Below are positions 26,231 to 62,949 of a DNA stretch of 64,000 nt, piece by piece. This DNA is from an uncultured Ruminococcus sp. GTDB lineage: Bacteria > Bacillota > Clostridia > Oscillospirales > Ruminococcaceae. A model generated the notes under the pieces. That model ran no database searches and was not told the DNA's origin. It was given only the letters and a program-made list of their open reading frames with translations. Each line of letters begins with the position of its first letter. The stretch's first letter is position 1. The position numbers and the translations under genes were made by a program. The DNA lies in contig CAZINI010000010.1 in NCBI GenBank assembly GCA_964540575.1, positions 42 through 64,041 on the forward strand. Direction: 5' to 3'.

Positions 26231-26254
26231 GTTATTGTAAGGAAAAAACAAAAC

Positions 26255-26272: not shown

Positions 26273-26298
26273 GAAATCATTCAGATGGAGGGGTAAAT

Positions 26299-27021: not shown

Positions 27022-27022
27022 T

Positions 27023-27427: not shown

Positions 27428-27455
27428 GCTGATTGAATGAAGGGAGATAATTAAA

Positions 27456-28257: not shown

Positions 28258-28274
28258 TTCCCCGGTGGGGAATT
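28256..28274. repeat. palindrome copy P7 (AATTCCCC-GGT-GGGGAATT)
   Basis: Read directly. Overlaps the stop of the parA C-terminal frame, with a 17-nt gap to ATG 28292. Confidence 0.95.
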
Positions 28275-41207: not shown

Positions 41208-43742
41208 ATGGCTCATCCTGATAAGAAGAAATATGTTTTGCAAACCGACAGAGCGGCTTACACTCAGAAAAAATATACCGTTAAGCGGACAAAAACACAA
41301 AATTCCCCACCGGGGAATTTTACGAAAGGCACGATAGGCGGAGATATTCCCAAAGGGCAGGGCGATACGAAAAAAAGCGGTACATTACTTAAGAAGATAT
41401 TTAAGGAAAACAGCGATAAGAAAGAAGCTTCGGAACAGACTCAGCATAAAAAAGCCGCATATATCCAAGATAATATTCAGAATGATGCGGCTGCTTCATA
41501 TGCGGAGCAGTATAGTGATACCGCTTTGGAAGAGTCTGTTTCACCGAAAGAAGAGCAGGATCTCTCCACGGGAAAGACGGAAGAAAAGCCGATACATAAT
41601 GCAAAATCGGACAGCATTGTTCCCAATAAAAATGACATATCCTCCGATAAAGCGGAGCAGATGAAAAGGGCGGCATTTATCAAAGCAAAGCTGCAAAAGA
41701 ACATTGCAGCAGCACAGATGAAAAGCACATATTACGAACAAAACGAAGAAGCTTGCGACAGGGTACATTCAGCTTCAAAGAGTAAGGACAATACTCCTTC
41801 ATATGTTGCGTCAAAAATGGAGGGCGTAACAAATGAGAATGCAGCTTCCACCGAAAGACGTTATCTCGGAAACAGCGAAAGCATTTCCGAAAACAAGCAT
41901 AAAAACAGCCTTGATAATGCCGAGGTAAAAAAAGCATATAAGACAAAAATACTCGGAGAACAGCTGAACAGGCGGAGAGCCGCTGCGGATATGTACAGTC
42001 AGGCTAAGACCAATGCTGCCCTTATTTCAGCCGAAAAGGCAAAAGCAGCTGCAATGAAAAATGCGGAAGCAGATGCCAATGTGAGAGATAATGTTATTCC
42101 CGGTGTTGAAAAGGCGGCAGAATATATGTCTGCTGCCAAAGACGGTGATACAGCTAAAATCTTGTCCAAGTCTGCAAAGGATATTCTTAGAAAGCATTTG
42201 AGTGATGGTACAAACCAATTTCTTGATAAAGCCGGTATAGTATCGGGTGCAGTAAAAGAAAGCGATTCTGTCGGCGGAGCAGTGGCAAATGTAGGTGTTT
42301 CGCTGGCAGCAAACGCTATAAAGCAATCTGTAAGCTCTGCATTGAAAAAACCGCTTACAGATAAAAAAATAGAGGAACGGCTTGAAAAAAAGTTCCACTA
42401 TATAGACCGCAAAACCGATAAGCAAATGAGTCGCATCCAAGCTGAAAAACGTGAAGCTATGAACGGGAATATCAGCAAAAGCCTTGAAAAGAAGCTTGAC
42501 AAGATAGAGCGTAATCAAGAAAGATACAAGGAGAAACTCGCAAAACAGCAACAAGAATTACAGCGTAGGCAGCAGAAAAACATTTACATAAAGCACAACA
42601 GAAAAAATCCTGTTTTTGTCGGTGGGAGAGAAAAAGGCGGGACTTTAAGAAAGCTTGTAGGTAAAAAGAGCAGCCTATTGCTTATGGGAGGGGTTGCACC
42701 GATAATAATCATTATTGTGGTCATTGTATTGTTTTTGGCAGTGATTGGATCTGTGTTTGCTCCGATTGGATGGCTAAAAGGATTTCATCATTCCGATGAT
42801 GCACTTAATGACAGCGAAGAACACGAAGTAATGTGCGTTGAATATATGAAATTCAAAAAGCTTGTTACCGATAAAATCAGGGAAATAAACACAGAGATAA
42901 CCTTAGCCTGCGAAAAGGAAATGCAGTTTTATGAAAGTTCCAACGGAAGTGTTAGTGTTACAGCCAGCCCGTTTATTGTTGCGACCGAAAAATTCTGGGA
43001 ATATGATGATGATGATCGCAAACATATAACCGGAGCGTACATTCCATACAAAGGTTCGCATCCAAGCGAATGGAGCAGGAGTGCATATGAAACAATTGAA
43101 TATACAGACGTGAATGGTAACGAAAGAATTATTCCTCTTAAGCTTGCGATCGATGATTTTGATTTTGCCGAATTTTGTGTAAATTTCCAAGTGTGGTCGA
43201 TAAAATCAAAGTATCCCGATGACGATGTGCAGAACCATTCGGGTGAAATTTTCACCTTGAAAGTCGGCAAAATGACAGAGTTTTTCAACCGCACTATAGT
43301 ATGGAATAAGGGTATGTATCCCTTGTATACATATGCAAGAGATATTACGGCAGATGACTATAAAGGTGATGATGAAGCGGCTGAAAATGCTGTTATTGAT
43401 ACATTTAGGGACGTCGGTTATCACGCTTTAACACTCAACTGCCGCTGCATGAATTATCATTACGATAATTGCAAAGGTCATCAGGTCAAATTTTATAATC
43501 TCAATGTAGTACCGTTCGAGGATATATTGGAGGAGGACGGGCTTGAATTGAGCGAAAATGACAGGAAGTTTATAGAGGAGCTTACAAAATCAATGCAAAT
43601 ACTTGACAGTGAGATAGTTCCCGAAGTTATGGCAACCTATACGGGGACGTACTTCGATGAGCCTGAAGAAACGGAGGAGTCGGAAGAGTCGGAAACAACG
43701 GTTAGTTCAGCGGATACAGAGCCAACAGAAACAGGAGGATAA
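41208..43742 (+). CDS. large membrane-anchored T4SS-associated protein (CD1108-like position; no hydrolase motif seen)
   Basis: 844-aa ORF. K/A-rich low-complexity N-terminal half, one TM (VAPIIIIIVVIVLFLAVIGSVF), Cys-containing C-terminal domain, acidic tail. Contains palindrome P8 in frame. Confidence 0.5.
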   Translation: MAHPDKKKYVLQTDRAAYTQKKYTVKRTKTQNSPPGNFTKGTIGGDIPKGQGDTKKSGTLLKKIFKENSDKKEASEQTQHKKAAYIQDNIQNDAAASYAEQYSDTALEESVSPKEEQDLSTGKTEEKPIHNAKSDSIVPNKNDISSDKAEQMKRAAFIKAKLQKNIAAAQMKSTYYEQNEEACDRVHSASKSKDNTPSYVASKMEGVTNENAASTERRYLGNSESISENKHKNSLDNAEVKKAYKTKILGEQLNRRRAAADMYSQAKTNAALISAEKAKAAAMKNAEADANVRDNVIPGVEKAAEYMSAAKDGDTAKILSKSAKDILRKHLSDGTNQFLDKAGIVSGAVKESDSVGGAVANVGVSLAANAIKQSVSSALKKPLTDKKIEERLEKKFHYIDRKTDKQMSRIQAEKREAMNGNISKSLEKKLDKIERNQERYKEKLAKQQQELQRRQQKNIYIKHNRKNPVFVGGREKGGTLRKLVGKKSSLLLMGGVAPIIIIIVVIVLFLAVIGSVFAPIGWLKGFHHSDDALNDSEEHEVMCVEYMKFKKLVTDKIREINTEITLACEKEMQFYESSNGSVSVTASPFIVATEKFWEYDDDDRKHITGAYIPYKGSHPSEWSRSAYETIEYTDVNGNERIIPLKLAIDDFDFAEFCVNFQVWSIKSKYPDDDVQNHSGEIFTLKVGKMTEFFNRTIVWNKGMYPLYTYARDITADDYKGDDEAAENAVIDTFRDVGYHALTLNCRCMNYHYDNCKGHQVKFYNLNVVPFEDILEEDGLELSENDRKFIEELTKSMQILDSEIVPEVMATYTGTYFDEPEETEESEESETTVSSADTEPTETGG
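41301..41319. repeat. palindrome copy P8 (AATTCCCC-ACC-GGGGAATT)
   Basis: Read directly. Translated as NSPPGN at residues about 32-37 of ORF 41208-43742. Confidence 0.95.
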
Positions 43743-44318: not shown

Positions 44319-44604
44319 CGTCCTCCTCAATAAGATCGTGGACTTTTGCCTGACCAGAACGGAGCTGTGCGATGGAACGTTCAAGGTGTGCGAGGTTTGA
44401 TTTGCTGTAAAAATAATCATCGGAAGAACTTTCGTAGGAATTGTGTAGTGATACCGAAAAGGGAAGTCCTTCGCACATAAGTGACTGCTTTATAAACATT
44501 GTAAAAGCAGTAGTCATATTAAGACCGAGTGAATTGAAAAGCTGTTCAGCTCTGCGTTTATCATCTGAGTCAAGACGCATTGTAACACTTGTAGTTTCTG
44601 ACAT
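44308..44604 (-). CDS. type II antitoxin with a RelB/DinJ-like RHH N-terminus
   Basis: VTMRLDSDDKRRAEQLFNSLGLNMTTAFTMFIKQSLMCEGLPF is a DinJ/RelB-like RHH. Acidic C-terminus. 11-nt overlap with the toxin start. Confidence 0.7.
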   Translation of the reverse strand: MSETTSVTMRLDSDDKRRAEQLFNSLGLNMTTAFTMFIKQSLMCEGLPFSVSLHNSYESSSDDYFYSKSNLAHLERSIAQLRSGQAKVHDLIEEDDDE

Positions 44605-44710
44605 AAAATCATCTCCAATCAAAAATAAGAAGAATTTGCTTATATATACATTGTACATTAAAATGCTTGCGTTGTCAATACTTTGCAAGCTAATAAGAGA
44701 GGAAAATTTT

Positions 44711-47080
44711 ATGAAACTTATAATCAGTGAAAAGCCGTCCACCGCAAGAACGATAGCTCACGCAGTGGGTGCAAGAGAAAAGATTTACGGTGAGGGAAAA
44801 GAGTATTGCTATAAAGGCAATGACTTTTTCGTTGTAAATGCGAGGGGACACCTTTACGGGCTGGGAATGCCGCAGGACTATGGGTACAGCAAGACTTACA
44901 AAATGGACGAGCTGCCTATGTTCCCCGAATTTGAGCTTTACCCCGAAGGCGAAGATACGGAAAATCTCCGTAATCTCATTGCATCGCTTATAAACCGTCC
45001 CGATGTGGACGAGCTTATCTGTGCGACCGATGCGGGACGTGAGGGAGAGCTTATTTTCCGTCATATTTATAACGCCAACAAATGCACAAAGCCCGTAAAA
45101 CGTCTTTGGACAAACTCAATGACGGACGAAGCTATTACAAAATGTATGGCAAATCTCCCGCCCGACAGCGATTTTGACGGAGAATATTATGCCGCACTTG
45201 CAAGGGAAAAATCCGATTGGATAATCGGAATGAACCTGTCCCGTCTTTATGGTATAAAGGATAACTACACTCACCGTATCGGACGTGTAAAAACTCCCGT
45301 TCTTGCCCTTATCGTTGACCGTGACAACGAGATAGACAGATTTGAAAAGGTGACTACATATCGCCTTGAAATGGAAAACGGTGCGGTATCGGAACAGATA
45401 TATACCTCAAAGGAAGAAGCCGAAAATGCAAGGGATAAATGCAGCGGAAAAGCTGTAAGTGTGCTGTCGGCAGTAATCGATGAGAAGCATATAAACAGAC
45501 CGCTGCTTCACAGCTTGACAACTCTCCAACAGGAAGCAAATAAGGTGTATGGCTTGACTGCAAAGCAGACACTTGAAGCTGCTCAGAGCCTTTATGAGAA
45601 CAAGCTGACGACCTATCCCCGTACCGATTGCAATTACGTTTCCGAGGATATGAGAGAACAACTTATCCGTGTGGTAAGCTGCATCGGAGAACGTTCCGAA
45701 TATGCGGACAGAGTAAACGGGCTGAACGCTGTGGGGCTTAATCTTGACGGCAGAGTTATAAACGACAAGGCAATGAGCGGTCACGATCATCACGCCATTA
45801 TCCCCGAAGCAAGCACAGCAAGCCTTGACAGCCTTTCCGACACGGAACGCAAGGTATACGGTCTTATCGTAAACCGACTGCTTTGTATTGCAGATAAACA
45901 GTATAGCTTCACCGAAACCAACTATACATTCTTTTGCGAAGATATTACATTCAATCTGAAAAAAGAAGTAACAAAAGAAATGGGCTGGAAGCAGTATGAT
46001 ACCGAACTTAAAAAATCGGAAAATTCCCCGGTGGGGAAAAATTCCCCGATGGGGAATTATGTAGAAGGAGAAACTTTCACAGCGGATAACATTTCCGTCA
46101 AGGAATGTGTTACCAAACCGCCCAAGCATTACACAGACGCAAGTTTGCTGTCGGTTATGAACAATATCGACAACAGAATAGACGATAAAGAACTGAAAGC
46201 AGCTGTAAGCGGCAAAGGCATTGGTACCGAAGCTACCAGAGCTGACATTATTGAGCAGCTAATTGCCGCAAAATATGCAGAGCGTAAGGATAAAAACATT
46301 ATTGCCACGGAATTTGGCAGAACCTTTATCGCTTCTATCCCCGATAACGTAAAATCTGTTGAGCGTACTGCGGAATGGGAACAGGTTTTTACCAACATAA
46401 AGGAAAAGGGCATTTCAGCCGAGCCTTTTATGGAAGATATAAAGGAATTTGTCCGTTCTGTCATTTGCTTTGAAAACAGCCCCACACGGCAGAGAACACC
46501 CGTTAATGTTCCCGAAGGCGGCAGTCAGCAGAGAACGGCAATAGGTATTTGCCCCCGATGCGGAAAGAATATTTACGAGGGTAAAATGAATTTCTACTGT
46601 GAAAGCGGCAAGGACGGCTGTGGCTTTACCTTGTGGAAGGAACCTAAATTTTTCAAGGACGTTATTTCTCCCGAAAAGGCTGAAAAGCTCATTGAGGGAA
46701 AAACGGTATCTTTAAAGGCTGAGAGCAAGGACGGAAAAATATATTCTGCCGACTACAAATTGAATGATACGGGAAAGTATGTAAATCTTGAACGTATCAA
46801 GACGGAAAAAGAAGTCATCGGAAAATGTCCGAGGTGCGGAAAGAATGTTTACGAGGGCAAGTTGAATTTCTACTGTGAAAGCGGAAAGGACGGCTGCGGT
46901 TTTGCGATTTGGAAGGAGGACAAGTACAACGGTATAACCGTTACCGCACAGAACGCAAAGGAACTGCTTGAGGGCAAGAGTATTGTCAAGACAAAAAAGA
47001 AATTATCGGGAGAAAACGTTCGTGAGCGTTACAAACTGAAGGATACGGGTAAATATATAAATCTTGAAAAGGAGCAGTAA
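44711..47080 (+). CDS. topB: DNA topoisomerase III with two C-terminal zinc-ribbon repeats
   Basis: Toprim N-terminus (MKLIISEKPS...), DAGREGELIFRH, TTYPRTDC active-site Tyr context, and two copies of CPRCGKN(I/V)YEGK(M/L)NFYCESGKDGCGF. Carries the tandem palindrome in frame. Confidence 0.9.
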   Translation: MKLIISEKPSTARTIAHAVGAREKIYGEGKEYCYKGNDFFVVNARGHLYGLGMPQDYGYSKTYKMDELPMFPEFELYPEGEDTENLRNLIASLINRPDVDELICATDAGREGELIFRHIYNANKCTKPVKRLWTNSMTDEAITKCMANLPPDSDFDGEYYAALAREKSDWIIGMNLSRLYGIKDNYTHRIGRVKTPVLALIVDRDNEIDRFEKVTTYRLEMENGAVSEQIYTSKEEAENARDKCSGKAVSVLSAVIDEKHINRPLLHSLTTLQQEANKVYGLTAKQTLEAAQSLYENKLTTYPRTDCNYVSEDMREQLIRVVSCIGERSEYADRVNGLNAVGLNLDGRVINDKAMSGHDHHAIIPEASTASLDSLSDTERKVYGLIVNRLLCIADKQYSFTETNYTFFCEDITFNLKKEVTKEMGWKQYDTELKKSENSPVGKNSPMGNYVEGETFTADNISVKECVTKPPKHYTDASLLSVMNNIDNRIDDKELKAAVSGKGIGTEATRADIIEQLIAAKYAERKDKNIIATEFGRTFIASIPDNVKSVERTAEWEQVFTNIKEKGISAEPFMEDIKEFVRSVICFENSPTRQRTPVNVPEGGSQQRTAIGICPRCGKNIYEGKMNFYCESGKDGCGFTLWKEPKFFKDVISPEKAEKLIEGKTVSLKAESKDGKIYSADYKLNDTGKYVNLERIKTEKEVIGKCPRCGKNVYEGKLNFYCESGKDGCGFAIWKEDKYNGITVTAQNAKELLEGKSIVKTKKKLSGENVRERYKLKDTGKYINLEKEQ
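46022..46058. repeat. palindrome copy P9 (tandem: AATTCCCC-GGT-GGGGAA + AATTCCCC-GAT-GGGGAATT)
   Basis: Read directly. In frame in topB as NSPVGKNSPMGN. The 43-nt block 46019-46061 is identical to 59494-59536. Confidence 0.95.
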
Positions 47081-48804: not shown

Positions 48805-48823
48805 AATTCCCCGGTGGGGAATT
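48805..48823. repeat. palindrome copy P10 (AATTCCCC-GGT-GGGGAATT)
   Basis: Read directly. Begins immediately after the stop at 48804, with an 18-nt gap to ATG 48842. Confidence 0.95.
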
Positions 48824-48841
48824 TAAGAGGGAGGAATAAGT

Positions 48842-50728
48842 ATGACCGAACAGGAAATGATCGCACAAATTGAGGAACGTCTGAGAAGTGAGTTTCAGGC
48901 GAAGCTTTCCGAGATGGAAAACAAGCTGAACAGCTTAAATGAAAAAGTACAGACCATAGAGCATTTTGTTGCGGCTATGAGTGCCGCACAGGATTTTGAA
49001 CAGACGATGGCTGAAATAGAAAGTGTAACAAAGCAGCTTACCGACTGTGAAAAAGCAACATTCTATTGCTATGACAGTTCCAATGATAAGTTTTTCTCTA
49101 ACGGAGATTATCGCAATTGGGCGGAGGAGCAGTCGGCAGATGACATAAAAAAAGCATTTGAAAGCAAGGAAATATTATCCGACAGCAAGGAAGCGGTGAT
49201 ACCGCTTGTGTCTGCAAGCGGCAGTTCGTTGGGAGTTATTGTCGCTGAAAAGGAAAACGGATTTACTTCTAAGGATTATGATAATTTCAGTCAGGGTTGT
49301 CAGATAGTGAATACTGTGGAGCTTGCTTTGAAAAAAGAGTTTGAGCATCAAGGTAAAATTACAGATGAGCTTACTCACCTTAAAAACAGGCAGGGACTTA
49401 ACGATTATTTGCATCATACTCTTTGCGGCAATATAAATAACGGCAAGGAAATAAGTATCCTTATGTGTGATATTGACCATTTCAAAAACGTCAACGATAC
49501 ATACGGACACGATGCAGGCGATATTATCCTCAAGGGCGTTGCGGAAGTATTGCAGGAAGGAACAAGGTCGGGAGCTGACTGTGCTTTCCGAATGGGCGGC
49601 GAAGAAATGGTGTGTATCCTGAACTGTCCTCCCGAAAAGGCGATGGACATTGCAGAGCGGCTGCGGGAAAAGGTAGAGAACACAGTACATCATATTGCCG
49701 TGAATAATGAACCTGTTGATGTCAAGGTAACAGTATCAATGGGCGTCCACAATATGCAGAAGCCTGATGTCGAGATGACTCCCGAAAATGCAAGACAGTT
49801 TTTTGATGAGCAATTCAAAAATGCGGATAAGGCGGTCTATGAAGCAAAAGAAACAGGCAGAAACAAGGTGATTTCAGCCGATGAGAACGTCTATATTGCG
49901 TACCTTGCAATGAAAGCTGCGGAAATTTTATGCAGCGATGATCGAACCAATGCTGATGATGTTAGGCAGCAGACAGTGAATTTGCTTACTGTCGGTGATC
50001 TTGAAACGATTACGGAAGCATTGCAGGCACATATTGAGGAACACCCGGATATGTCAGCGGCGGCAGAGAGCTTAATTACAAAGCTGGTAGATCTGTCGCA
50101 GACTTATGTGAAGGAAGAACAGGGAATAGAAACGGAGGAGAATACAATGAATGAGCAGGAAAGCAAGGCACCGACTTATTTCAATAAGGACGCATTTCGG
50201 AATATTCGGAATAAGGAATATATCAATACCGATTCAAAGACGGCATATACGATTTCCTTAAAAGCTCAGGAACAGGGCATTGAACATTCCGTAAAATATG
50301 ACGGCAAGCAGTCGGCAGTTACGTTTGACGGCGTTAGGGATAAGGCGTTTGTCGAAGCTGTCAGAAAGGAATTCAATATCTCCGAAAAGACTGCCGAGAA
50401 GCCTGCTCCCGAACAAAGCAAGAGTGAAGCTCCAAAAGAAAAAGCCCCGACTTTTTTCAATAAAGAGGGCTATAAGGACATTCAGAACAAGACATTTATT
50501 CAGACCGACTCAAAGACAGCCTATGCGATCTCCAAAGAAGCTGCAAAGCAAGGTGTAGAACATTCCGTGAAATATTACGGCAAGCAGTCGGCAGTTACGT
50601 TTGACGGCGTTAGGGATAAGGCGTTTATTGATACAGTAAAAAGTATGTCCGATTGGGCTGATAAGGTACAGGTCAAGGCTATCCGTGAGAAAGCACAGAC
50701 CGCACAGACGAAAAACGATGCAAGGTGA
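48842..50728 (+). CDS. GAF-like + GGDEF diguanylate-cyclase-type protein with two C-terminal about 70-aa repeats
   Basis: GGDEF domain (LTHLKNRQGL, CDIDHFKNVNDTYGHDAGD, RMGGEEM at 49595-49609). Preceded by a coiled coil and a GAF-like region. Followed by duplicated APT(Y/F)FNK...DSKTAY(T/A)IS...G(I/V)EHSVKY.GKQSAVTFDGVRDKAF modules. Confidence 0.8.
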   Translation: MTEQEMIAQIEERLRSEFQAKLSEMENKLNSLNEKVQTIEHFVAAMSAAQDFEQTMAEIESVTKQLTDCEKATFYCYDSSNDKFFSNGDYRNWAEEQSADDIKKAFESKEILSDSKEAVIPLVSASGSSLGVIVAEKENGFTSKDYDNFSQGCQIVNTVELALKKEFEHQGKITDELTHLKNRQGLNDYLHHTLCGNINNGKEISILMCDIDHFKNVNDTYGHDAGDIILKGVAEVLQEGTRSGADCAFRMGGEEMVCILNCPPEKAMDIAERLREKVENTVHHIAVNNEPVDVKVTVSMGVHNMQKPDVEMTPENARQFFDEQFKNADKAVYEAKETGRNKVISADENVYIAYLAMKAAEILCSDDRTNADDVRQQTVNLLTVGDLETITEALQAHIEEHPDMSAAAESLITKLVDLSQTYVKEEQGIETEENTMNEQESKAPTYFNKDAFRNIRNKEYINTDSKTAYTISLKAQEQGIEHSVKYDGKQSAVTFDGVRDKAFVEAVRKEFNISEKTAEKPAPEQSKSEAPKEKAPTFFNKEGYKDIQNKTFIQTDSKTAYAISKEAAKQGVEHSVKYYGKQSAVTFDGVRDKAFIDTVKSMSDWADKVQVKAIREKAQTAQTKNDAR

Positions 50729-50732
50729 GAAT

Positions 50733-50768
50733 AATTCCCCGGTGGGGAATTTTTCCCCGTTGGAAATT
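50733..50768. repeat. palindrome copy P11 (perfect AATTCCCC-GGT-GGGGAATT plus a degenerate second unit TTCCCC-GTT-GGAAATT)
   Basis: Read directly. 4 nt after the stop at 50728; the degenerate unit ends 16 nt before TTG 50785. Confidence 0.9.
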
Positions 50769-52483: not shown

Positions 52484-52771
52484 ATGAATAAATGCTTTTT
52501 ACAGGGAGTGATCTCAAAAGCTCCCGTACAAACAGGCGATAATGTATTTGGCAGATTTGTTTTCACCATCATTCCGAATGGCAAAACTGAGGAAATCGAA
52601 GCTGTCGCTTGGACTTACAGAGGTTTCGGCAAACGCTACAAGTCTGGGGATAAGGTCGTTGTTATAGGCGAGAAACGCACCCGAAAAATACCCACCGACA
52701 ACGGCGTAAAATGTGTGCCGATAGTAGTTGTGGACAGCATTACGGCAAACAAGGAGGAGCATAACGTATGA
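52484..52771 (+). CDS. OB-fold, SSB-like small protein (tentative)
   Basis: 95-aa ORF behind AAAGGAGAA. The pattern CFLQGVISKAPV...FGRFVFTI...EIEAVAWTYRGFGKRYKSGDKVVVIGEKR resembles an SSB OB-fold. Confidence 0.4.
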   Translation: MNKCFLQGVISKAPVQTGDNVFGRFVFTIIPNGKTEEIEAVAWTYRGFGKRYKSGDKVVVIGEKRTRKIPTDNGVKCVPIVVVDSITANKEEHNV

Positions 52772-55700
52772 CCGAATATATAAACAAGGAATTTTACAAG
52801 GAAATACCCGCTGATGAACGTCACTACATTAACCTTTCCGCAAGCAATATAAGTGCGGTTATGGACAGGCTGAACGCCGAGGGTATTCCTTTTTCGGCTA
52901 CTCTTAATAACTACAAAAATGTTATCACCGTAAGAAAATCCGACAGTGAGAGGGCTAATGCTATTGTAAGCGAGCTTACTCCAAAGAAAAGCTCCGACAT
53001 TCGCATTATCGGGAACACAGACTATCGTTACATTTCCGACAAGCGGTATATAAATATGGACTCAGACACGGCGTTAAAGGTTGCAGCTATACTGTCGGGA
53101 GATAGCAACAGCCGTTTTTCGGGACGTATTGTCGGCGATAAGGCTACTATTACCGTAAGCGGTGACAAAAATGCCGTAAATGTTCGCAGAATTGCTGACA
53201 ATATAAAGAATGCCGACCTGCTTTCCGAGCTTGACAAAGCGGGCTTTGAACGTGTGAACATTGATAACGGTTTTGTTAATTTCCGCAACAGATATACGGG
53301 AAATATTGAGGGCTTTGATAGCCTTGATATGGTACGGGAAATGTTTGAGGATAAAGACAATGAATTTTTCCACCCGACCGCATACCGTATCGCACTGTCC
53401 TCAGATGCATATGAGGACGAATACTATATTTCCTGTTATGACAATACCACAGGAGAGGAAAAAGAGCCGTATTTTGACAACAATGGTGCGGTTACATATA
53501 TGCCTACATTCAGAACTGTTGATGCAGCTCTTGATTATGCTGTATCGGAGAATATAACACTCAGCAATTCAAATGATGAGCTTGAAAAGTGGAGAGCAGC
53601 GGAAGCCGAACGTGACAACGAGCAGATAGCCGAAGAAAACAGAAGTCTTATTGCCGATTTTCCTATGCAAGACGGACTTTATCCCGACCAGTTCAGATAT
53701 AATCCCGATGATAACAGCTTTATGTGGACATATTTCAATCCCGATGGTGACAACGGTCGGGGAATATTTGTCGAGAAGCATATTTCCGAGCAGGATATAT
53801 ATGCTGCACATACTGCTATGATTTCAGCGGAAAATGAAGCCGAGGGGCAAAGTGCTTTTATCAATTACATTTTGGAAAACTGCCGTGAAGCAGTTATTGA
53901 TACTTACAGCGGATATTTTGAGGGGTATGCGAACGACTATATCAACAAACCCGAAGCTGTTGTTGAGTATTACGGTATCGGTGCAAACAACAGTCATATC
54001 GAGGACATAACTGCACTTATTTCCCGTATGGAGGACTGCTGTGCCAAGATAAAAAAAGAACAGCTTGAAGCAGCTGCTCTAACCGATGAAACGGAAAAAT
54101 TATCCGATCAGCTTGTTGAAATAACGGACGGTATTGTAAAAAGTCAGGAAGAATTTACTGAGTGCATAAGTACGGGAAACTATGAGGGTGCATCGGCTGC
54201 CGCTTCCAAGCTTGCCGAACTGAGCCGCAGGGCAGAGCAGATAAAGGCGATGATACAGGCAGAAGCTATTACAACAGATGATGTCGATGTGCTGCGGAAT
54301 ATAAAGCCCGAAAGGAAATCCGTGCAGAATATGCTTGAAACCGAGGTTGCTCAGACACCAAAGTTTGAAAAGCTTCTTGGCGAGGAATTCGGGGAGAAGT
54401 CTGCCTATGTGATGAGAAACAGTGATAATGAGTGGAGAAATGACGAGTCAAAAACGGCGGTCGTTGTTGAGGTTCAGAAGCGGGATATTCCCGTTCACCC
54501 GGCGGAGCTTCAAAGGAAAGGCAACGATATTCCCAGAGGAATTTTTGTTAATCGAGATACCGGTATTGAAATACAATTTAGCAGACGTTCCATTGAGGAA
54601 ATAGTTGCAAAAGCTATACATGATGACAAGAGAGATACTCCTGTTGAAGCACGAATGGCTGCTCTTTATCAGATGCAGGATTTAATTGAAAATGCAATTT
54701 GTTTTGATAGTCAGCTATCCGAACCAAGTAATTCAAAAAAATCGGACAGTACTTTGTTTATCCATAGAATGTACGGATTAATAATCTACGATAATGAACA
54801 ATACCTGGCGAATTTGGCTATTGAGGAAACATATTCGACTGATAGAGAGAACCGATTTAGGGATACCAATAATCGACTGTATTCTTTTAGAGATATAAAA
54901 ATAACACCAACGAAGCTATTGGGCGGTCAAGCCCACGCAGACTTGCAAAATGCAAGCGAGGATACTTCGTTAGGTGTTACTACAATAAGTATACCACAGC
55001 TTTATGATATTGTCAAGACCAATGACCAAAGATTTTTTGAAAATCCATCAGCCCCGGGACGTGCCGACAGAGAAGCCGAGATAAAGGCACAGTCTGAGTA
55101 TCGGAATGCTGTTGAGAAATATAACGCATATATTCTGACCGCCGACAGCGAAGAAATAGAAATTGACGGTCAGGAAGGTACTTGGTATGTTATCGATACG
55201 CAGACCATAGGCGGCAAAGAACTTTTTCTTTTGGAAAGCGAGATATACGGTGATGAAGCTGCCTGCCTTATCGTTGACGGAAACAGAAATATCGTTATGG
55301 ATAATGTTTATAACGGCTTTGAGGATTATATTGAAGAAAATGCCGTTCCCGACGAGCAGATTATAATATCCGGCGAAGTCGCTTCGGAAATGTGGTATTA
55401 CGGCTTTGACGTTTATGTAAATGGGGAAAAACTTGATAAATTTGATGATGTTTCCGATAAAAGCGGGATGTTCGGGAGGCTGGAGGATAAGGAAAATAGC
55501 ATATCCGCAGCTGTTAATGACGTTACCCTTTACCACAATGCCGAAGCTATTGCAAGTGCTGTTTTTGATATATCCAAAAAGTATTATAATGCTCCGAAAA
55601 GTGCAGGAACGCCGTATTATCTCAATCTTGAAAAATATCACGAGGATAATGATTGGGAGAATTGGCGTAAAGATGAAAACGAGTATGCCAACACAATGTT

Positions 55701-58700
55701 TGCACTTCTGGAGAGAAGCTATCCTTCGGTTGAAAATTACCTGATAAATGTAGTAAGTGACAGCAAGAACAGGGAAGATATGGCAGAGGACAGAGAAGCT
55801 GCACTAAAGGCTTTGCAGACCATTGAAGTGTTTAAGATTGGAATGGAAGAATTTCGTCCTATACATTTTGAACCTGTTGAGGAAACAAGCTATGCAGAGC
55901 AGCTTTATACAAGAGTAAATGACGAATACAGCTATTTTATCGGTCAGATAAAAAATGAAAGCCCTGATGTGCTTGTTCGTTCGGCTGCGGAAATAGCGGA
56001 TAAGGAAAAGATTACACAGTATATTATGGAGGGGACTGTTTCTCTTTTAGATAAACAGTATGAAGCTTTGCTGTCAAGACCAAATCCGCTTGATGAAATT
56101 TATGAGCAGTGGGTGCAAAACGGCGAACTGAGCAGCTTTGAAGATGTTGGTATCGCACTTGAAGAAGCAGCCGACCGTATTCTTGTTTCCCTTGACCGTG
56201 AAAACTCACGTTCCGAGGAAAAGGTCAATGCCGTACTTGCAGTTTCGCAGAATGATACTAGCAGATATTATGCTGCAAATAATGTTTCCGTTGATGATGT
56301 GAGAGAAGTTATTAAACACTCAGATATGCTGTTTATCGACCTTTGTGCACTTGGTGAAAAGCAGATAACGGAAGCTCAGTTTGCGGAGTATTCACAGAGA
56401 AACGGTGTTACTGCTGTTGATGTGGATATTGACGAGCAGACTATGCACGTTTACGGTGCGGATAAGCCTATTATTTCATTTGATGAAATAAAGGTGGATT
56501 TTGATGAAATAGCAAAGGCACTTGACCTTAAAAACAACACTATTACATTTTCTGTTGTTGCCATTGAAGGAGAAAAGCCCTTTATTATTGGCAGTTATAT
56601 CGACAAGGACGATATTACCGCACTCGAAGAATATCAGGATTATATCTATGATACGGGAAGAAAGAATATTGATGTTACCGTTGATTATTATACGATAGGT
56701 ATGGGAGATAATGAGTCGTATGGTGCCGATACCGATGAAAGGGACTATATTTTCGAACACCTTGATGAAGTGCTGAAATATAAATATACCGATCACCTTG
56801 AATCGGAAACATATTTTATTGCGACTCCCGCAGAACTGCTGGAAGAAATCAGCGGCGAAGCAGAAGAAAAGAACTATTTATTCACTGTTGCAGAATTTGA
56901 GGACGGCAGCAGATATGTTATCCCCGGTAAAATCGATGATAATAACATTAAGGAAACGGCAGCTTGGACGGAAGTTAAGAACAACAATTTTGACGTTGAC
57001 CGTATTACAGATCTTGACGAAGATATACGGGTGACATATACGGTATATCAGACAGGCAGCGGAGAAACCGTTTTGCCGACAGACGAGGAAACAGCAAGGA
57101 TCGAAGCTGCTCTTGATGAAATCTTATCCGATGCGGTTATGGTGACTTCTTTTGATTCATCTGTACGTCCTTGGGAAGATGTTGATGATGTCATTTTCAA
57201 AATGGAAGAAGTATGGAAAGAACGTCACGCAAAGGAAATGAATGTTTCCGATGGTTTTGACAACAGTAATTTCCTTTATCCCAATAATCTGATGAAAATC
57301 GCACACGACAGCGAGGGAAAAGACCATTATAATTTCGACGACGATGCTATCTTGCAGATAAAGCTTGCAGGAAGTGAATGGCTGCACCCTGTTGACGCTG
57401 CTGTTGAAATGAACCGCAGAGGTGTTGACATTAATGACATTGAAATGCTAAATGTGCGATATGTTTCCTCCGATGGTACTGTCGGAGAAAAGGATGTAAC
57501 TCCCGAACAATATATAGTTTACCTTGCTCACAGCGAAGAACGAACAAATGCTTTTCTGGCTGCGGTCGATGCAGCAGAGGAGCGGAAAAAGGTTCCCGAA
57601 GCAATGATGAATATCATTTATGATGATATGCCGTCATTTGTCAAGAGTGCTGTTGCTTGGGACGAGCTTATGGAATATGACGGTATATCGGAACAATTTG
57701 ATAAGGGTGAAGATCCCGTTGCGGTGGTAAAGCCTTATCTTGCAAATAATGGCACATTCTCTTGGAACGCAGATGAGCTGAAAAACGGATATTTTGATTG
57801 GTCTGTAAAGGATAATGGTGATACGGCAGATATTTCAATTTCCGTAAATGACAGCGACACGTTCAGAGAGAAGTATAATTCTCATTTTGAAGTGCCTTGG
57901 ACTGAACTTGCAGACGCATTTAAAAAGCGAATAGATCAGGAGATAAACTACAATAAAATCTCTGACGGAACGATTACTGTAACTGCCGTAGGTGAGGATA
58001 GGTTCAGATTTGTTGACAGAAGCAGAAATACGGAAGCGATTGAAAGCCGTGAACAGTTGATTGAACGTTTTACAGAAATGTTCAATAAAGCTGATTTGAA
58101 CGGTATCATTAGGTCTGTTATTGAGGAAGCTAAATTTGAAAAGATTGAAGTTGATAATAATTCCCCGGTGGGGAATTTGGACGGCGATGAGGAAAAGCAG
58201 ATAATTGACCTTTCCAAACTTTCAAAAATCACTCTTAATGATGAATATGAACGTGGAACGGATCAGCCCGATGATTTCCAATACATAAAAAATACTATCA
58301 CATTCAGCGACCTTAATTCGTCATTTCTTATACGCAGAAACAAGGAATTTACATATGACTATGATGTTCTGCCCGACCTTGACGAGGGTGATACATTCAT
58401 CACAAGACAGGGTATGCTAAAAGAAGTGCGGGATTTTCTGGAAGCAGCAAAAAGCGATTCGGATAAATCCATTTCCATTACCGATATGAACGGTAATACT
58501 ACTGTTCTGAAAGGCAGTCAATACGTCTTTGAAGCAACAGAGGACAGGCTTGCATTTATGATACCCGAGGTTGGCTATGCGGAAATGTTTGAACGTGATG
58601 ATGACAGCTATGATTACACGATTTATGACAGCGATTTCAAAGTTACAGACAGCGGAGTTTACGATGACGTAAGCATTACTCTACGTCAGGCATTTACTAT

Positions 58701-61700
58701 TATTTTAGAAGATGCAGGGTATGATATTGACAGATGCGAGCCTATGGATTTTGAAGAACTGCACAGCCGAATAGATGAAAAGTCTGAAAAGGCTATCAAA
58801 AACGGAACGCACATTAGTCCCAAAGAAAGAGCCGAGCAGGATAATACGCCAAAATATGAGATATACCAGATACCCGCAGGCGAACGCTATCACGATATTC
58901 GCTTTACAAGCTATGACCTTTTGGAAAAATGGGGACAGCTGCCCGATCGTCTTAATTATGAAAAGGTGTACAGCGGCAGGCTTGATGATATTGAATATGA
59001 TAATAAGCCGGAGGGCATATTCATCAAATTCAATACCGAACGTCCCGAAGATTTTGCGGGGCATTCTCTGAGCACTTCCGACGTTATTGTTATCGAGGAC
59101 GAAAAGGGTAAATCTGCGTATTTCGTTGACGATGTTGGATTTAGGGACATTACAGATATTTTCCTTGAACTTGACCGTGCACAGAACAAACCTCTTGAGG
59201 AGGAAAATTCCATAGAAAATGAAGCGGAGTACTTAAATACTGTCGAATTAGAATGGAAGGCATTGCCCGAATCTATTGACGAAGAAACAGGCAAGCCATC
59301 AATTTGGTCAACTGAGATAAATTCCGAAAGATATGGGAGATATTTATGGATAAGTAAGAATGAAAATAATACATATGATGTCGAGTATGATGCAGGCGAC
59401 AGAATTATTCCCGTATCATCGGAAAGTATCGGATTTTATTCATTGTCTGCTGCCAAAGATTGGGTTGATTATGAATTAGCTGACCCCGAAAAAGAAAATT
59501 CCCCGGTGGGGAAAAATTCCCCGATGGGGAATTATGAAAACGCCAATAGCTATGAACCGAAAATCGGTGACTTTATCGAGTATCAGGATAAACTTTTTAA
59601 AGTTGCAGACGTTGGCAGCGGAACTGTTACCTTGCAGACCGCAGACACTCTTATCCCCGAAACAACGGTGGTATCTGTTACCGACCTTATTACAAGCGAC
59701 AGTCTGACCGTTATCGAGGAAAACGGAAAGCCTGCTCACATTACGCAAACAGTAGCCGAGCAGCCTGCCGAGAATAATCCAAAATCACGGAATTTTGTTA
59801 TCACAGACGAGAATTTTGGTGTTTCGGGCGGTGCAAAAACGAGATATGCGGACAATGTTGCAGCTATTAAAACGTTGAAAGCGATCGAAGCGGAAAACCG
59901 CACGGCTACCCCCGAAGAACAGCAGATATTGTCAAAATACACGGGCTGGGGAGCAATACCGCAGGCATTTGACATTAACAATGACAAGTGGCGTACAGAG
60001 TATGCGGAACTCCGCACTTTGCTCACACCCGAAGAATACGCTGCTGCCAGAAGGTCAACGATGAACGCACACTACACCTCTCCCACAGTTATTTCGGCAA
60101 TTTATGAGGGACTGAAAAATCTCGGATTTGAAGGTGGAAAAATCCTTGAGCCTGCTGTCGGAATAGGAAACTTTTTTGGAGCAATGCCCGAGGAAATGCG
60201 TAACAGCAAGCTGTTCGGCGTTGAGCTGGACAGTCTTACGGGACGTATTGCACAGCAGCTTTATCCCGAAGCTGATATTCAGATAAAGGGCTTTGAGCAG
60301 ACAGCATTTGCGGACAACAGCTTTGATGTTGCTATCGGCAATGTGCCTTTTGGCGATTACAAGCTGAATGACCGCCGATACAATGAAAACAATTTCCTGA
60401 TTCACGACTACTTTTTCGCAAAGGCTTTGGACAAAGTTCACCCCGGCGGCGTTGTTGCATTTGTGACTTCAAAGGGTACGCTTGACAAGGAAAATCCCGA
60501 AGTCAGAAAGTACATTGCACAGAGAGCGGAACTGCTGGGTGCAATACGTCTGCCTAACAATGCTTTCAAGGCAAATGCAGGCACGGAAGTTACTTCCGAC
60601 ATAATCTTTTTGCAGAAGAGAGAACGTCCGATTGAAATCAATCCCGATGAGGTGGAATGGCTGAAAAAGGCTGAAACTCCCGATGGTTTTTCCGTGAATA
60701 ATTACTTTGTGCAGCACCCTGAAATGGTGCTTGGCACAATTGCAGAAGCGAAGCATATTTACGAACCGACCGAAAACACTCAGGTACTTCCAATTGAGGG
60801 AGCAGACCTTAAACAGCAGCTTTCGGAAGCAATGAGGAATATTCAAGGAAAGTATAGAGCTTCGGAAAAAGAAACAGCTCTTCAGAATGTGGACGAAATC
60901 CCAGCTCCGGCTAATTCCCGAAAGTACAGTTTTTATGCTGTTGACGGAAATCTCTATTACAGAGAAGCCGGGGACACTATGAAAAAGGTGAACGTGTCGA
61001 AAGATACACTTAGCCGTGCGATAGGTATGATAGAGCTTCGTGATAATGTTCGTGAACTGCTTGATTTACAGCTGAATAATGCGGACGGCAGTCTTGACTT
61101 TGATATTTCCGAAAGCAGAAAAAAGCTGAATAATGCCTATGACAGCTTTGTTGCTAAGTATGGCAATGTAAGCGATAAGAAAAATGCAAAGGCAATGCAG
61201 GGCGATGACGGCTACAATATCGTTTCTGCTCTTGAAGTTAAGGACGAAAAGGGCAATGTTACGGGCAAAGCGGACATTTTTACTCAGAACACCGTAAAGC
61301 CTAAAATCATTGCGACACACGTTGATACTGCCGAGGAAGCACTTATTCTATCTGTTGCCGAAAAAGCAAAGGTGGATTTTGAGTATATGACAGAACTTTG
61401 CGGTATGGATAAAAATACTCTTATTTCCGAATTGTCGGGACAGATATACCGTCTGCCGCAGGAAAAAGAAAAATATGTGACCGCAGACGAGTATCTTACG
61501 GGAAATATCCGCAAGAAGCTCCGTGAGCTGGAGAATGTACCCGAGGGTATGGACGTTTCCGAGAACAGAAAGGCACTTGAAGCGGCTATGCCACCGAGAG
61601 TTGAAGCAAAGGATATTTCCGTAAAGCTGGGTGCACATTGGATAGACCCTAAATATATCGAGGATTTCATAAAAGAAAAATTCAATCCCGATTATGATAC

Positions 61701-62949
61701 AAGGAGAAATATGAGTGTGCAGTACAGTGCAGTTGCGGGAACGTGGAAAATCGAAGATGTAAAGCCATCTGCGAAGAAAAACTATTATTGTACACATACA
61801 TACGGAACTCAAAGAATGCACGCATATGCGATACTCGAAGCTATCCTTAACAACGGCGATATACAAGTAAAAGACCGTGTTAAGGACGAATACGGCAATG
61901 ATATGCGGGATATGAACGGCAAGTATATCCTTGTAGTCAATGACGAGGAAACAAAAGCAGCCCGCCGATGTGCTAATGTGATTAAGGCGGAATTTGAGGA
62001 TTGGATATTCAGAGATCCCGACCGCCGTGAAGCATTGGTGCAGAAGTACAATGAGGTGTACAATTCTATCCGTCACAGAGAATATGACGGTTCTCATTTG
62101 AGTTTTGTGGGTATGAACACGGGTATTACTCTTAAGGAACACCAGAAAAACGCTGTTGCAAGAGGACTTTACGGAGGAAATTGCTTGCTTGCTCACGCCG
62201 TTGGTGCAGGAAAGACGTATGAGATGATAGCGATCGCAATGGAGGGCAAGAGGCTTGGTTTGCATAACAAGTGCTTGTTTGCTGTTCCCAATGCGTTGAC
62301 CGAGCAGATCGGCAATGATTTCCGCAAGCTGTATCCAAATGCACATATCCTTGTGGCAACACAGAAGGATTTTGAAAGAGAAAATAGGTTGCAGCTTTTG
62401 GGAAAAATAGCAGCAAACGATTGGGATGCGGTTATTGTGGGACATTCGCAGTTTGACCGTATGGGCTTATCTCCCGAAAGAGAAAGAGCTTACCTTGTTG
62501 CAGAGGTCAACAAACTGCGACGTGAACTTGAAATGGCTGCTGCCGAGAGCGGCGGAAAAAAGAGCTTTACCGTTAAGCAGATAGAAAAATCTCTTGCAAG
62601 CTATGAGGACAAGCTGGCGAAGTTGAGTGATGCACAGGTCAAGGACGGTTTTATCGACTTTGAGCAGCTGGGCTTTGACAAGATTTTCGTGGACGAAAGT
62701 CATATGTACAAAAATCTCGCAACGGCAACGAAAATGCACAATGTGTCGGGTCTTGGAAGTCAGGGTTCGGCTAGAGCATTTAATCTGTTGATGAAATCAA
62801 GGTATCTTGATGAGCTTACCGGGGGAAGGGGCTTAACTTTCGCCAGTGGAACGCCCATAATCACAGGGTATCTACGGTCAGAAATGCCGATTTTACGTTG
62901 TTTAAAGCAAATGAGCATCACGGACGAAAGTGATGCTCATTTTTTATAA
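52768..62949 (+). CDS. giant polyvalent protein (at least 3393 aa): N-terminal modules + N6-adenine DNA methyltransferase + SNF2/DEAD helicase N-lobe; 3' part replaced
   Basis: One uninterrupted ORF with an ATGA start overlap. MTase motif I ILEPAVGIGNFFG (about 60143) and motif IV GNVPFGDY (about 60338). Helicase Walker A AHAVGAGKTYEM (about 62190) and DEAH-type VDESHMYKN (about 62689). Family-like sequence stops after FASGTPI (about 62859). The last about 30 codons are unrelated and end in a terminator hairpin, and no helicase C-lobe is present. Confidence 0.85.
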   Translation: MTEYINKEFYKEIPADERHYINLSASNISAVMDRLNAEGIPFSATLNNYKNVITVRKSDSERANAIVSELTPKKSSDIRIIGNTDYRYISDKRYINMDSDTALKVAAILSGDSNSRFSGRIVGDKATITVSGDKNAVNVRRIADNIKNADLLSELDKAGFERVNIDNGFVNFRNRYTGNIEGFDSLDMVREMFEDKDNEFFHPTAYRIALSSDAYEDEYYISCYDNTTGEEKEPYFDNNGAVTYMPTFRTVDAALDYAVSENITLSNSNDELEKWRAAEAERDNEQIAEENRSLIADFPMQDGLYPDQFRYNPDDNSFMWTYFNPDGDNGRGIFVEKHISEQDIYAAHTAMISAENEAEGQSAFINYILENCREAVIDTYSGYFEGYANDYINKPEAVVEYYGIGANNSHIEDITALISRMEDCCAKIKKEQLEAAALTDETEKLSDQLVEITDGIVKSQEEFTECISTGNYEGASAAASKLAELSRRAEQIKAMIQAEAITTDDVDVLRNIKPERKSVQNMLETEVAQTPKFEKLLGEEFGEKSAYVMRNSDNEWRNDESKTAVVVEVQKRDIPVHPAELQRKGNDIPRGIFVNRDTGIEIQFSRRSIEEIVAKAIHDDKRDTPVEARMAALYQMQDLIENAICFDSQLSEPSNSKKSDSTLFIHRMYGLIIYDNEQYLANLAIEETYSTDRENRFRDTNNRLYSFRDIKITPTKLLGGQAHADLQNASEDTSLGVTTISIPQLYDIVKTNDQRFFENPSAPGRADREAEIKAQSEYRNAVEKYNAYILTADSEEIEIDGQEGTWYVIDTQTIGGKELFLLESEIYGDEAACLIVDGNRNIVMDNVYNGFEDYIEENAVPDEQIIISGEVASEMWYYGFDVYVNGEKLDKFDDVSDKSGMFGRLEDKENSISAAVNDVTLYHNAEAIASAVFDISKKYYNAPKSAGTPYYLNLEKYHEDNDWENWRKDENEYANTMFALLERSYPSVENYLINVVSDSKNREDMAEDREAALKALQTIEVFKIGMEEFRPIHFEPVEETSYAEQLYTRVNDEYSYFIGQIKNESPDVLVRSAAEIADKEKITQYIMEGTVSLLDKQYEALLSRPNPLDEIYEQWVQNGELSSFEDVGIALEEAADRILVSLDRENSRSEEKVNAVLAVSQNDTSRYYAANNVSVDDVREVIKHSDMLFIDLCALGEKQITEAQFAEYSQRNGVTAVDVDIDEQTMHVYGADKPIISFDEIKVDFDEIAKALDLKNNTITFSVVAIEGEKPFIIGSYIDKDDITALEEYQDYIYDTGRKNIDVTVDYYTIGMGDNESYGADTDERDYIFEHLDEVLKYKYTDHLESETYFIATPAELLEEISGEAEEKNYLFTVAEFEDGSRYVIPGKIDDNNIKETAAWTEVKNNNFDVDRITDLDEDIRVTYTVYQTGSGETVLPTDEETARIEAALDEILSDAVMVTSFDSSVRPWEDVDDVIFKMEEVWKERHAKEMNVSDGFDNSNFLYPNNLMKIAHDSEGKDHYNFDDDAILQIKLAGSEWLHPVDAAVEMNRRGVDINDIEMLNVRYVSSDGTVGEKDVTPEQYIVYLAHSEERTNAFLAAVDAAEERKKVPEAMMNIIYDDMPSFVKSAVAWDELMEYDGISEQFDKGEDPVAVVKPYLANNGTFSWNADELKNGYFDWSVKDNGDTADISISVNDSDTFREKYNSHFEVPWTELADAFKKRIDQEINYNKISDGTITVTAVGEDRFRFVDRSRNTEAIESREQLIERFTEMFNKADLNGIIRSVIEEAKFEKIEVDNNSPVGNLDGDEEKQIIDLSKLSKITLNDEYERGTDQPDDFQYIKNTITFSDLNSSFLIRRNKEFTYDYDVLPDLDEGDTFITRQGMLKEVRDFLEAAKSDSDKSISITDMNGNTTVLKGSQYVFEATEDRLAFMIPEVGYAEMFERDDDSYDYTIYDSDFKVTDSGVYDDVSITLRQAFTIILEDAGYDIDRCEPMDFEELHSRIDEKSEKAIKNGTHISPKERAEQDNTPKYEIYQIPAGERYHDIRFTSYDLLEKWGQLPDRLNYEKVYSGRLDDIEYDNKPEGIFIKFNTERPEDFAGHSLSTSDVIVIEDEKGKSAYFVDDVGFRDITDIFLELDRAQNKPLEEENSIENEAEYLNTVELEWKALPESIDEETGKPSIWSTEINSERYGRYLWISKNENNTYDVEYDAGDRIIPVSSESIGFYSLSAAKDWVDYELADPEKENSPVGKNSPMGNYENANSYEPKIGDFIEYQDKLFKVADVGSGTVTLQTADTLIPETTVVSVTDLITSDSLTVIEENGKPAHITQTVAEQPAENNPKSRNFVITDENFGVSGGAKTRYADNVAAIKTLKAIEAENRTATPEEQQILSKYTGWGAIPQAFDINNDKWRTEYAELRTLLTPEEYAAARRSTMNAHYTSPTVISAIYEGLKNLGFEGGKILEPAVGIGNFFGAMPEEMRNSKLFGVELDSLTGRIAQQLYPEADIQIKGFEQTAFADNSFDVAIGNVPFGDYKLNDRRYNENNFLIHDYFFAKALDKVHPGGVVAFVTSKGTLDKENPEVRKYIAQRAELLGAIRLPNNAFKANAGTEVTSDIIFLQKRERPIEINPDEVEWLKKAETPDGFSVNNYFVQHPEMVLGTIAEAKHIYEPTENTQVLPIEGADLKQQLSEAMRNIQGKYRASEKETALQNVDEIPAPANSRKYSFYAVDGNLYYREAGDTMKKVNVSKDTLSRAIGMIELRDNVRELLDLQLNNADGSLDFDISESRKKLNNAYDSFVAKYGNVSDKKNAKAMQGDDGYNIVSALEVKDEKGNVTGKADIFTQNTVKPKIIATHVDTAEEALILSVAEKAKVDFEYMTELCGMDKNTLISELSGQIYRLPQEKEKYVTADEYLTGNIRKKLRELENVPEGMDVSENRKALEAAMPPRVEAKDISVKLGAHWIDPKYIEDFIKEKFNPDYDTRRNMSVQYSAVAGTWKIEDVKPSAKKNYYCTHTYGTQRMHAYAILEAILNNGDIQVKDRVKDEYGNDMRDMNGKYILVVNDEETKAARRCANVIKAEFEDWIFRDPDRREALVQKYNEVYNSIRHREYDGSHLSFVGMNTGITLKEHQKNAVARGLYGGNCLLAHAVGAGKTYEMIAIAMEGKRLGLHNKCLFAVPNALTEQIGNDFRKLYPNAHILVATQKDFERENRLQLLGKIAANDWDAVIVGHSQFDRMGLSPERERAYLVAEVNKLRRELEMAAAESGGKKSFTVKQIEKSLASYEDKLAKLSDAQVKDGFIDFEQLGFDKIFVDESHMYKNLATATKMHNVSGLGSQGSARAFNLLMKSRYLDELTGGRGLTFASGTPIITGYLRSEMPILRCLKQMSITDESDAHFL
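58159..58177. repeat. palindrome copy P12 (AATTCCCC-GGT-GGGGAATT)
   Basis: Read directly. In frame in the giant ORF as NSPVGN. Confidence 0.95.
59497..59533. repeat. palindrome copy P13 (tandem, identical to P9)
   Basis: Read directly. In frame as NSPVGKNSPMGN, about 260 nt upstream of the start of the methyltransferase module. Confidence 0.95.
59791..60630 (+). other. N6-adenine DNA methyltransferase module of the giant ORF
   Basis: NFVITDENFGVSGGAKTRY ... ILEPAVGIGNFF ... FDVAIGNVPFGDYKL ... DIIFLQKRERP. Confidence 0.8.
62095..62859 (+). other. SNF2/DEAD helicase N-terminal lobe of the giant ORF (C-lobe missing)
   Basis: LKEHQKNAV ... GAGKTYEM ... VDESHMYKN ... FASGTPI, then loss of family-like sequence. 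Confidence 0.75.
62911..62945 (+). terminator. hairpin + T-run at the end of the truncated giant ORF
   Basis: ATGAGCATCAC / GTGATGCTCAT stem followed by TTTTT. Confidence 0.65.

Follow-up and report, generated by a model that had tools for sequence, protein, structure and literature searches.

Two described systems are among the closest to the one reported here. KorB of the IncP plasmid RK2 has OB palindromes as its sites (PMC11790492), and passages of PMC12409273 describe BisD, of the Pseudomonas element ICEclc, as loading at GAGCTATCCCCnGGGGATAGCTC sites inside the inrR and ssb genes. Here we analysed a 64,000-nucleotide stretch of DNA from an uncultured Ruminococcus sp. (the window, whose positions are used throughout unless another contig is named), which carries a Firmicutes-type conjugative element. 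Its source genome (3.41 Mb) is labelled G000; other G, L and P labels denote the genomes, loci and proteins of relatives. A 19-bp palindrome, AATTCCCC-N3-GGGGAATT, recurs both between the cistrons of this element and in frame within its genes, including a giant polyvalent open reading frame (ORF) of 3393 amino acids as it stands (52768..62949, plus strand). We consider these palindromes probable parS/OB-like sites of the element's own ParB-like protein. The original prediction had taken the copies in the giant ORF as possible marks of module junctions and possible fossils of intergenic punctuation. The first part agrees with the linkers and shared mosaic breakpoints described below, whereas the second conflicts with copies in topoisomerase III and ParB and with palindrome-free joins between modules.

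With up to two mismatches allowed, the palindrome pattern matched 15 times in the window, compared with 0.00 times in 100 shuffles. Genome-wide, the core TTCCCC-N3-GGGGAA has 17 sites (15 within the window, two on contig C11), and all 17 are on the conjugative element, the palindrome thus being an inverted repeat of the element that encodes the ParB-like protein. Among 400 family genomes, multi-copy ATTCCCC-N3-GGGGAAT was present only in G000, G123 (32 copies), G246, G018 and G245. A palindrome scan of the DNA of the whole collection returned mainly chance single matches in unrelated phyla, and only the multi-hit metagenome-assembled genomes of Clostridia were informative.

Two loci lie in the giant ORF, both in frame and placed as predicted. 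The first is a single copy at 58159..58177 (AATTCCCCGGTGGGGAATT), read as NSPVGN (residues 1798-1803) in the linker between modules A and B. The second is a tandem pair at 59497..59533 with an 18-nt period, read as NSPVGKNSPMGN (residues 2244-2255) in the linker before module E. The palindrome has no stop codon in any frame, as is read directly from the sequence. The majority of the other copies follow a stop codon and precede the ribosome-binding site (RBS) of the next gene. Six of these, at 21741, 23087, 24005, 25151, 26254 and 28256 (span 21741..28274), each follow a stop codon, 5-30 nt upstream of the next RBS, the last (28256-28274) being 18 nt upstream of the ParB-like gene; two more intercistronic copies are at 48805 and 50733 (span 48805..50751). 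Copies elsewhere were nevertheless not all confined to intercistronic spacers, as had been supposed. A single copy (41301..41319) contributes the in-frame peptide NSPPGN to the basic N-terminal tail of an 844-amino-acid ORF (41208-43742) whose start at 41208 has a good RBS, and a tandem pair (46022..46058) encodes, in frame, residues 528-539 of topoisomerase III (44441..47080, plus strand; Topoisom_bac 1.6e-93), within a catalytic-domain loop that is variable. This pair and its flanks are identical to those in the giant ORF, so that two unrelated genes share an identical 43-nt block. In-ORF copies had either the full 19-bp consensus or two bases off it, the same as intergenic copies. The copy at 50733 is accompanied, 18 nt further on, by a decayed second unit (TTTTCCCCGTTGGAAATT; 50733-50768), which indicates that tandem pairs form, and decay, between genes too. 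The radical-SAM ORF (20828-21799) reads through the palindrome at 21741 in the frame FPSGE and ends 19 codons past it, overlapping the start of the next gene, with a C-terminal tail made of spacer sequence.

The ParB-like protein (28292..29257, plus strand) has an N-terminal CTPase-type domain, a disordered linker and a helix-turn-helix, and is the proposed reader of the palindrome. It matched PF02195 at 1.2e-19 and TIGR00180 with a score of 74.3 (cut-off 58.45), and it has a GHNR motif. Its sequence matches in the PDB were Noc, Spo0J, ParB and KorB, and its AlphaFold2 model matches two-domain ParB, Noc-DNA and KorB-DNA structures (8qa8, 8qa9). Its ParA-type ATPase partner is encoded on the same element (27456..28139, plus strand), so that the domains and the partner expected of a cognate ParB occur together. 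Assignment of the protein to Noc itself was rejected, its TIGR04285 score of 75.8 being far under the cut-off of 315. Relatives of this ParB came from Ruminococcus, Oscillospiraceae and similar gut and rumen genomes.

We compared palindrome arms with ParB sequences at 87 ParB loci. The palindromes of related elements share this design (8-9-bp arms, 3-nt centre) but differ in arm sequence: ATGTTCC in G068, L204 and L205, where it is read in frame as NVPVEH in giant-ORF linkers; GTGCTCC in G278 and G245:C93; GTCCCCC in G245:C81; ATTCGCC in L234-L236 and L284; and several rarer arms besides. The ATTCCCC arm was found at 16 of 19 loci whose ParB has the helix motif (S/G)(K/R)N(T/S)xARLIR and at 0 of 67 others, and the ATTCGCC arm at five of five loci with the motif KKD/SKD...ARLLR; the remaining arm families accompany different helices. 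Residue 177, which comes second in the recognition helix (H176-191) of the ParB model, is N in 16/16 ATTCCCC loci and D in 5/5 ATTCGCC loci. Elements whose topoisomerase III and giant ORF most resemble those of G000 have different ParB types and different palindromes. The nearest relatives of the G000 ParB (56-57%) are those of G018 and G123, two genomes with the G000 palindrome, whereas their topoisomerases III are only 43-50% identical to that of G000; G278 has a topoisomerase III that is ~80% identical and a C-terminal part of the giant ORF that is 84% identical, yet its ParB is only 47% identical and its palindrome is another. Site and DNA-reading helix thus change together, a correlation among related elements which suggests that arm sequences follow the recognition helix of the ParB-like protein that each element encodes. 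The ATGTTCC sites (L204:2279-2376, L161 (G068:C20) 10092-14599 and L205) have the form ATGTTCC-N3-GGAACAT, which resembles parS minus one central base, and in giant ORFs of the G068 type up to three NVPVEH are present in the linker leading into the methylase module.

The location of 17/17 genome copies on the element, the tracking of arm by helix, the ParB family match and the published precedents together point to a parS/OB-like role. The 8-bp inverted half-sites around a 3-bp centre would be read on double-stranded DNA by a ParB-like dimer. ParB would load at some 15-17 sites along the element and then spread or slide, like KorB of RK2 or BisD of ICEclc, the likely purposes being partition, control of the long transfer operon, or both. 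Site gain and loss would outpace protein change, and sites would persist only where 18-19 nt are harmless, that is, between cistrons or in disordered linkers, loops and tails within ORFs, where the tolerated frame would give a polar turn, NSPxGN or, less often, FPxGE.

We investigated where the palindromes fall in the giant ORF, which is a textbook polyvalent protein in that many unrelated effector and LPD domains are joined in one ORF with type IV secretion system genes adjoining. Its Pfam domains are LPD3, LPD18, DUF3848, LPD16 (1924-2003), YodL (2029-2128), an Eco57I-type methylase and a ResIII helicase. Residues 1600-2340 were modelled with AlphaFold2 (61 aligned sequences, mean predicted local distance difference test score (pLDDT) 72.5), which gave a confident domain to ~1789, then a stretch with pLDDT<50 (1797-1812) containing the first copy. 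The tandem pair fell within a second stretch with pLDDT<50 (2235-2258), followed by a confident small beta-barrel (2259-2315, module E), and the YodL domain between the two low-confidence stretches was itself confident. As predicted, the second locus lies ~260 nt before the methyltransferase module, which starts near residue 2341.

Homology edges from exhaustive profile search and pairwise BLAST agreed with the model. At the first copy, module A ends at 1795-1801 and module B homology starts at 1801-1809 in most relatives, with the exception of P0008 (75%), which aligns from 1791 and spans the palindrome. At the tandem pair, module D ends at 2239-2245, and the block of module E and methylase starts at 2237-2262. 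Both loci are therefore in linkers at module junctions, from low pLDDT together with homology endpoints. A set of ten giant proteins has 23 palindrome peptides within ORFs, 13 of them with at least two homology endpoints within 15 residues, compared with 4.1 expected at random (0/5000 permutations reached 13), in a sample in which the proteins are related and some peptide matches are uncheckable at the DNA level. In G123, the YodL domain has a palindrome on either side, at distances of 15 and 19 residues. Pfam domains never overlapped palindromes, which we did not count as a test, as Pfam coverage of these proteins is small.

Among 96 ATTCCCC-type palindromes from 17 sources, 26 were well inside long ORFs. 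These were read as NSPxGN in 21, FPxGE in five and IPxWGI in none, some of the 26 being orthologous and two probably in spurious ORFs. Other arm families use the same central Pro-Val/Leu frame (NVPVEH, RAPLEH, RPPVGD). Selection on the encoded peptide would produce such a frame bias and such placement in linkers, and both giant-ORF copies would be at junctions because a polyvalent protein has many disordered linkers there.

Palindromes also arose within genes where no boundary exists. In topoisomerase III, the tandem pair is within the Topoisom_bac domain, where the alignment with E. coli Topo III is unbroken. The pair is present in the G245 enzyme (87% identical), whereas in G278 (~80%), G068, G356, G309 and five others the loop is six residues shorter and has no palindrome (palindrome-free homologues are 58-80% identical). 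G018 and G123 have the palindrome at two other places in the enzyme, giving three different sites in three elements. Four ParB homologues encode their own element's palindrome type in the linker that connects their N-terminal domain to the helix-turn-helix; the G000 ParB has a shorter inter-domain linker without a palindrome, with a disordered stretch at 152-161 in its model. In-ORF sites have thus arisen without a gene boundary both in the topoisomerase III loop, as six additional residues relative to palindrome-free homologues, and in the ParB linker.

The proposal that the in-ORF copies are relic spacers holds that a stop codon was lost and neighbouring cistrons fused through the stop-free palindrome, recording polyvalent assembly at these two junctions. 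In its support, both loci are in disordered linkers between independently folding modules, as expected of a fusion scar, and homology endpoints are enriched at in-ORF palindromes. Intergenic copies often abut or overlap the upstream stop (TAA|AATTCC, T|AATTCC), in-ORF versions (GAA AAT TCC or GAA TTC CCC) are one base from a stop, and translation already extends through two copies (21741 of the window, 21719 of G123), which form C-terminal tails. In P0008, two different modules are each preceded by the palindrome and 'LxGDEEKQ', a combination resembling a portable gene head, and YodL also occurs in stand-alone genes (PMC5512222). We nevertheless judged this origin unlikely. The topoisomerase III pair is the key counter-example, because copies in its loops and in the ParB linker occupy places that were never gene boundaries, so in-ORF copies are not confined to former boundaries. 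Only two of the ~12 module junctions of the giant ORF carry a palindrome, and one pair of modules is joined both with and without it: where module E begins, the modules on either side are the same in G245, G278 and G068, of which G245 has a single palindrome between them and the other two an unrelated linker of similar length and no palindrome. In-ORF copies are undecayed despite divergence of 15-40% in the flanking protein sequence and 15-55% between the surrounding proteins, which implies that they are kept or renewed. No consistent relic Met or start codon follows the copies; GAGGAAAAG follows the first copy, yet encodes residues conserved in G068, which is palindrome-free there. A related but distinct view, that the palindromes and a few flanking codons are joints for module insertion, deletion or swap, acting as short shared homologies or breakage-prone hairpins, is compatible with ParB binding and would draw on the same endpoint enrichment and on the shared 43-nt block. 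A ~290-amino-acid P-loop module that is present or absent relative to P0008 has its right edge at a palindrome, and a duplicated segment in G246 starts exactly at one. Yet most junctions are palindrome-free, G068 joins YodL to module B without one, the homology break between G123 and G246 is 150 nt from the nearest copy, and enrichment at junctions is equally expected if linkers are the sole tolerant places; we therefore regard a role as joints as rather unlikely.

Two further explanations concern the palindrome as a structure or as an insertion. Hairpins in RNA or in the transferred single strand could act as mRNA stabilisers, processing marks, antisense terminators or priming signals, with in-ORF copies as by-products. 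Predicted energies were -9.8 to -12.8 kcal/mol for single copies and -23.9 for the pair, the two arms covary from one element family to another, and the fixed place between stop codon and next RBS would suit such a role, as would the A-rich 5' flanks, which make the six intercistronic copies at 21741-28274 terminator-like (hairpin and T-run), on the antisense strand only. However, z-scores were modest (-1.2 to -2.1 for single copies), and no U-tract was present on the sense strand, unlike an intrinsic terminator or repetitive extragenic palindromic (REP)-like sequence. Each element has one exact stem, common even to elements whose proteins are 45-57% identical, an identity that structure alone does not need, and the arm tracks a DNA-binding helix; a primarily structural role is hence quite improbable. 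A selfish miniature palindromic insertion that spreads itself and lands in frame, like those of Rickettsia, would explain the in-frame gain relative to orthologues, the tandem units of exactly 18 nt and the identical 43-nt block at two sites. Against this, the repeat is only 19 bp, is confined to one element of the genome, shows no transposase or target duplication and belongs to a sequence family that tracks ParB, and no chromosomal spread apart from ParB-bearing elements was seen in the 400 family genomes. We consider such an insertion very unlikely. A restriction/modification target or an origin of transfer (oriT) repeat was also rejected, with no link to a methylase or relaxase and 15 copies present.

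Several observations weigh against the palindromes being ParB sites. As the covarying elements are related, common ancestry accounts for part of the pattern, and only two of the eight fixed differences between the ATTCCCC and ATTCGCC groups are in the recognition helix. Approximately 30 ParB homologues (motif VSKGSVVRLIR) have no such palindrome in their loci. The Noc site is 14 bp long, unlike the 3-bp-centred palindrome here, and the odd 3-bp centre also differs from the 16-bp parS described in passages of PMC12409273. The place just upstream of the RBS and the hairpin potential also fit a role at the RNA level, and ParB binding would leave the mechanism that copied a 43-nt block between genes unaccounted for.

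Loss of stop codons could have left relatives in which separate ORFs end and start at the palindromes, as the original prediction anticipated. We found no such split genes at these points in 400 family genomes, in libraries of 5.8 billion and 1.8 billion proteins and in 300 fetched loci, a sampling that is incomplete. L204, L205 and L297/L298 were rejected as split versions: their truncated module B, module E frameshift, internal deletions and in-frame nonsense codon are none of them at a palindrome. A 1909-amino-acid ORF of G246 starts near the position of an in-frame copy in G123, but it was likewise rejected, as the homology break is 150 nt away and the N-terminus is new. In the metagenomic relative L297 (L297:4280-6508), a RepA_N-YodL ORF is separated by a single in-frame stop from a module-B ORF, and internal deletions follow further on; in this relative the polyvalent gene is decaying. 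Residues 1760-2300 used as a query against the contig collection returned no relatives, and relatives were obtained from the genome search.

The remainder of the window encodes further parts of the conjugative element, including a VirD4 coupling protein (33932-36094) and VirB4 (38181-41186), along with PrgI-like and TrbC-like proteins, a GGDEF protein and a DUF3991/Toprim protein. The giant ORF is broken near 62856: past 'ASGTPI', unrelated sequence continues in frame to a stop at 62949, from either an assembly break or an insertion. Its last ~440 residues (the C-terminal part of the helicase, DUF6908 type) are on the minus strand of contig C11 (C11:59483-60802), where two further palindromes (C11 58972 and 59438) lie just past the displaced gene end. 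The ~380 residues between the break in the window and the C11 piece were not found. The tail of C10 has an N gap (63831-64346) and then a 1860-amino-acid ORF (64355-69934). In L197/L198 (G123:C10 at 26877, 28834, 46945, 47674 and 48589), five palindromes each directly precede the same ~190-nt conserved sequence, which is followed by one to three copies of a ~33-nt hairpin-containing repeat with ~35-nt unique spacers. These look like mini arrays of the clustered regularly interspaced short palindromic repeat (CRISPR) kind, or a structured RNA with an array; an Rfam search of the repeat after the palindromes in G123, the sole related region searched, gave no match.

If the palindromes are ParB sites, then a mobile element has fitted a dense grid of docking sites into DNA with almost no non-coding space, writing it in the codons of disordered linkers and loops, where one or two frames give a harmless peptide. 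The related elements would then provide a natural series of ParB-site specificities (ATTCCCC, ATTCGCC, ATGTTCC, GTGCTCC, GTCCCCC and others), each with a matching helix, and a test bed for how co-resident elements avoid cross-talk. A broader proposal is more doubtful: that gut Oscillospiraceae/Ruminococcus conjugative elements hold at least eight mutually distinct ParB/palindrome 'codes', with one helix residue (N177/D) tracking one half-site base pair, and that their sites, written into their own disordered linkers, double as joints for gain, loss and exchange of polyvalent modules, so that one 19-bp word would be docking site, peptide linker and recombination joint at once. For polyvalent proteins in general, the palindromes are good marks of linkers and unreliable records of former gene boundaries.

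Comparison with known systems places the palindromes nearest to other ParB sites. The palindromic elements of Rickettsia also put palindromic DNA in frame at tolerant surface positions of protein genes, but they are 100-150 bp long, genome-wide and selfish, whereas the 19-bp repeat here occurs on one element only and covaries with a DNA-binding protein. Among Firmicutes, parS is located inside spo0J, and the Noc site, ATTTCCCGGGAAAT, resembles the half-site seen here. The parS/Spo0J and Noc/Noc-binding site (NBS) systems likewise have palindromic sites of ParB-family proteins, and Noc, Spo0J and ParB are the nearest solved relatives by sequence; their sites, however, are even in length, 14-16 bp, without a 3-bp centre, and have chromosomal roles. 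The modules of the giant ORF recur reordered and as solo genes, as in the polyvalent proteins of Iyer et al. (2017, PMC5512222), although the word 'linker' is not used and DNA palindromes at module junctions are not described in the passages of that paper considered here. With KorB of RK2 the element shares a ParB-family CTPase-type protein beside a ParA-type ATPase, a conjugative setting and short palindromes at several places. It differs in phylum (Oscillospiraceae/Ruminococcus-type hosts here), in its 8+3+8 site rather than a 13-bp OB core, in having sites at cistron heads and in frame inside ORFs, and in that no KorA-like partner was identified; binding and repression here are putative. 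Passages of PMC12409273 describe in BisD and bisS a ParB-like protein of an integrative conjugative element with odd-centred palindromes, a CCCC-n-GGGG core and sites in coding genes, all as here. There, however, ICEclc has two functional sites with 11-bp arms, compared with 15-32 sites here and in relatives, BisD has an activator domain and a partner, BisC, and those passages do not describe sites embedded in the linkers of giant proteins or tandem in-frame units. The phenomenon is thus a variant of known ParB-site systems in an unusual placement, rather than a new kind of system.

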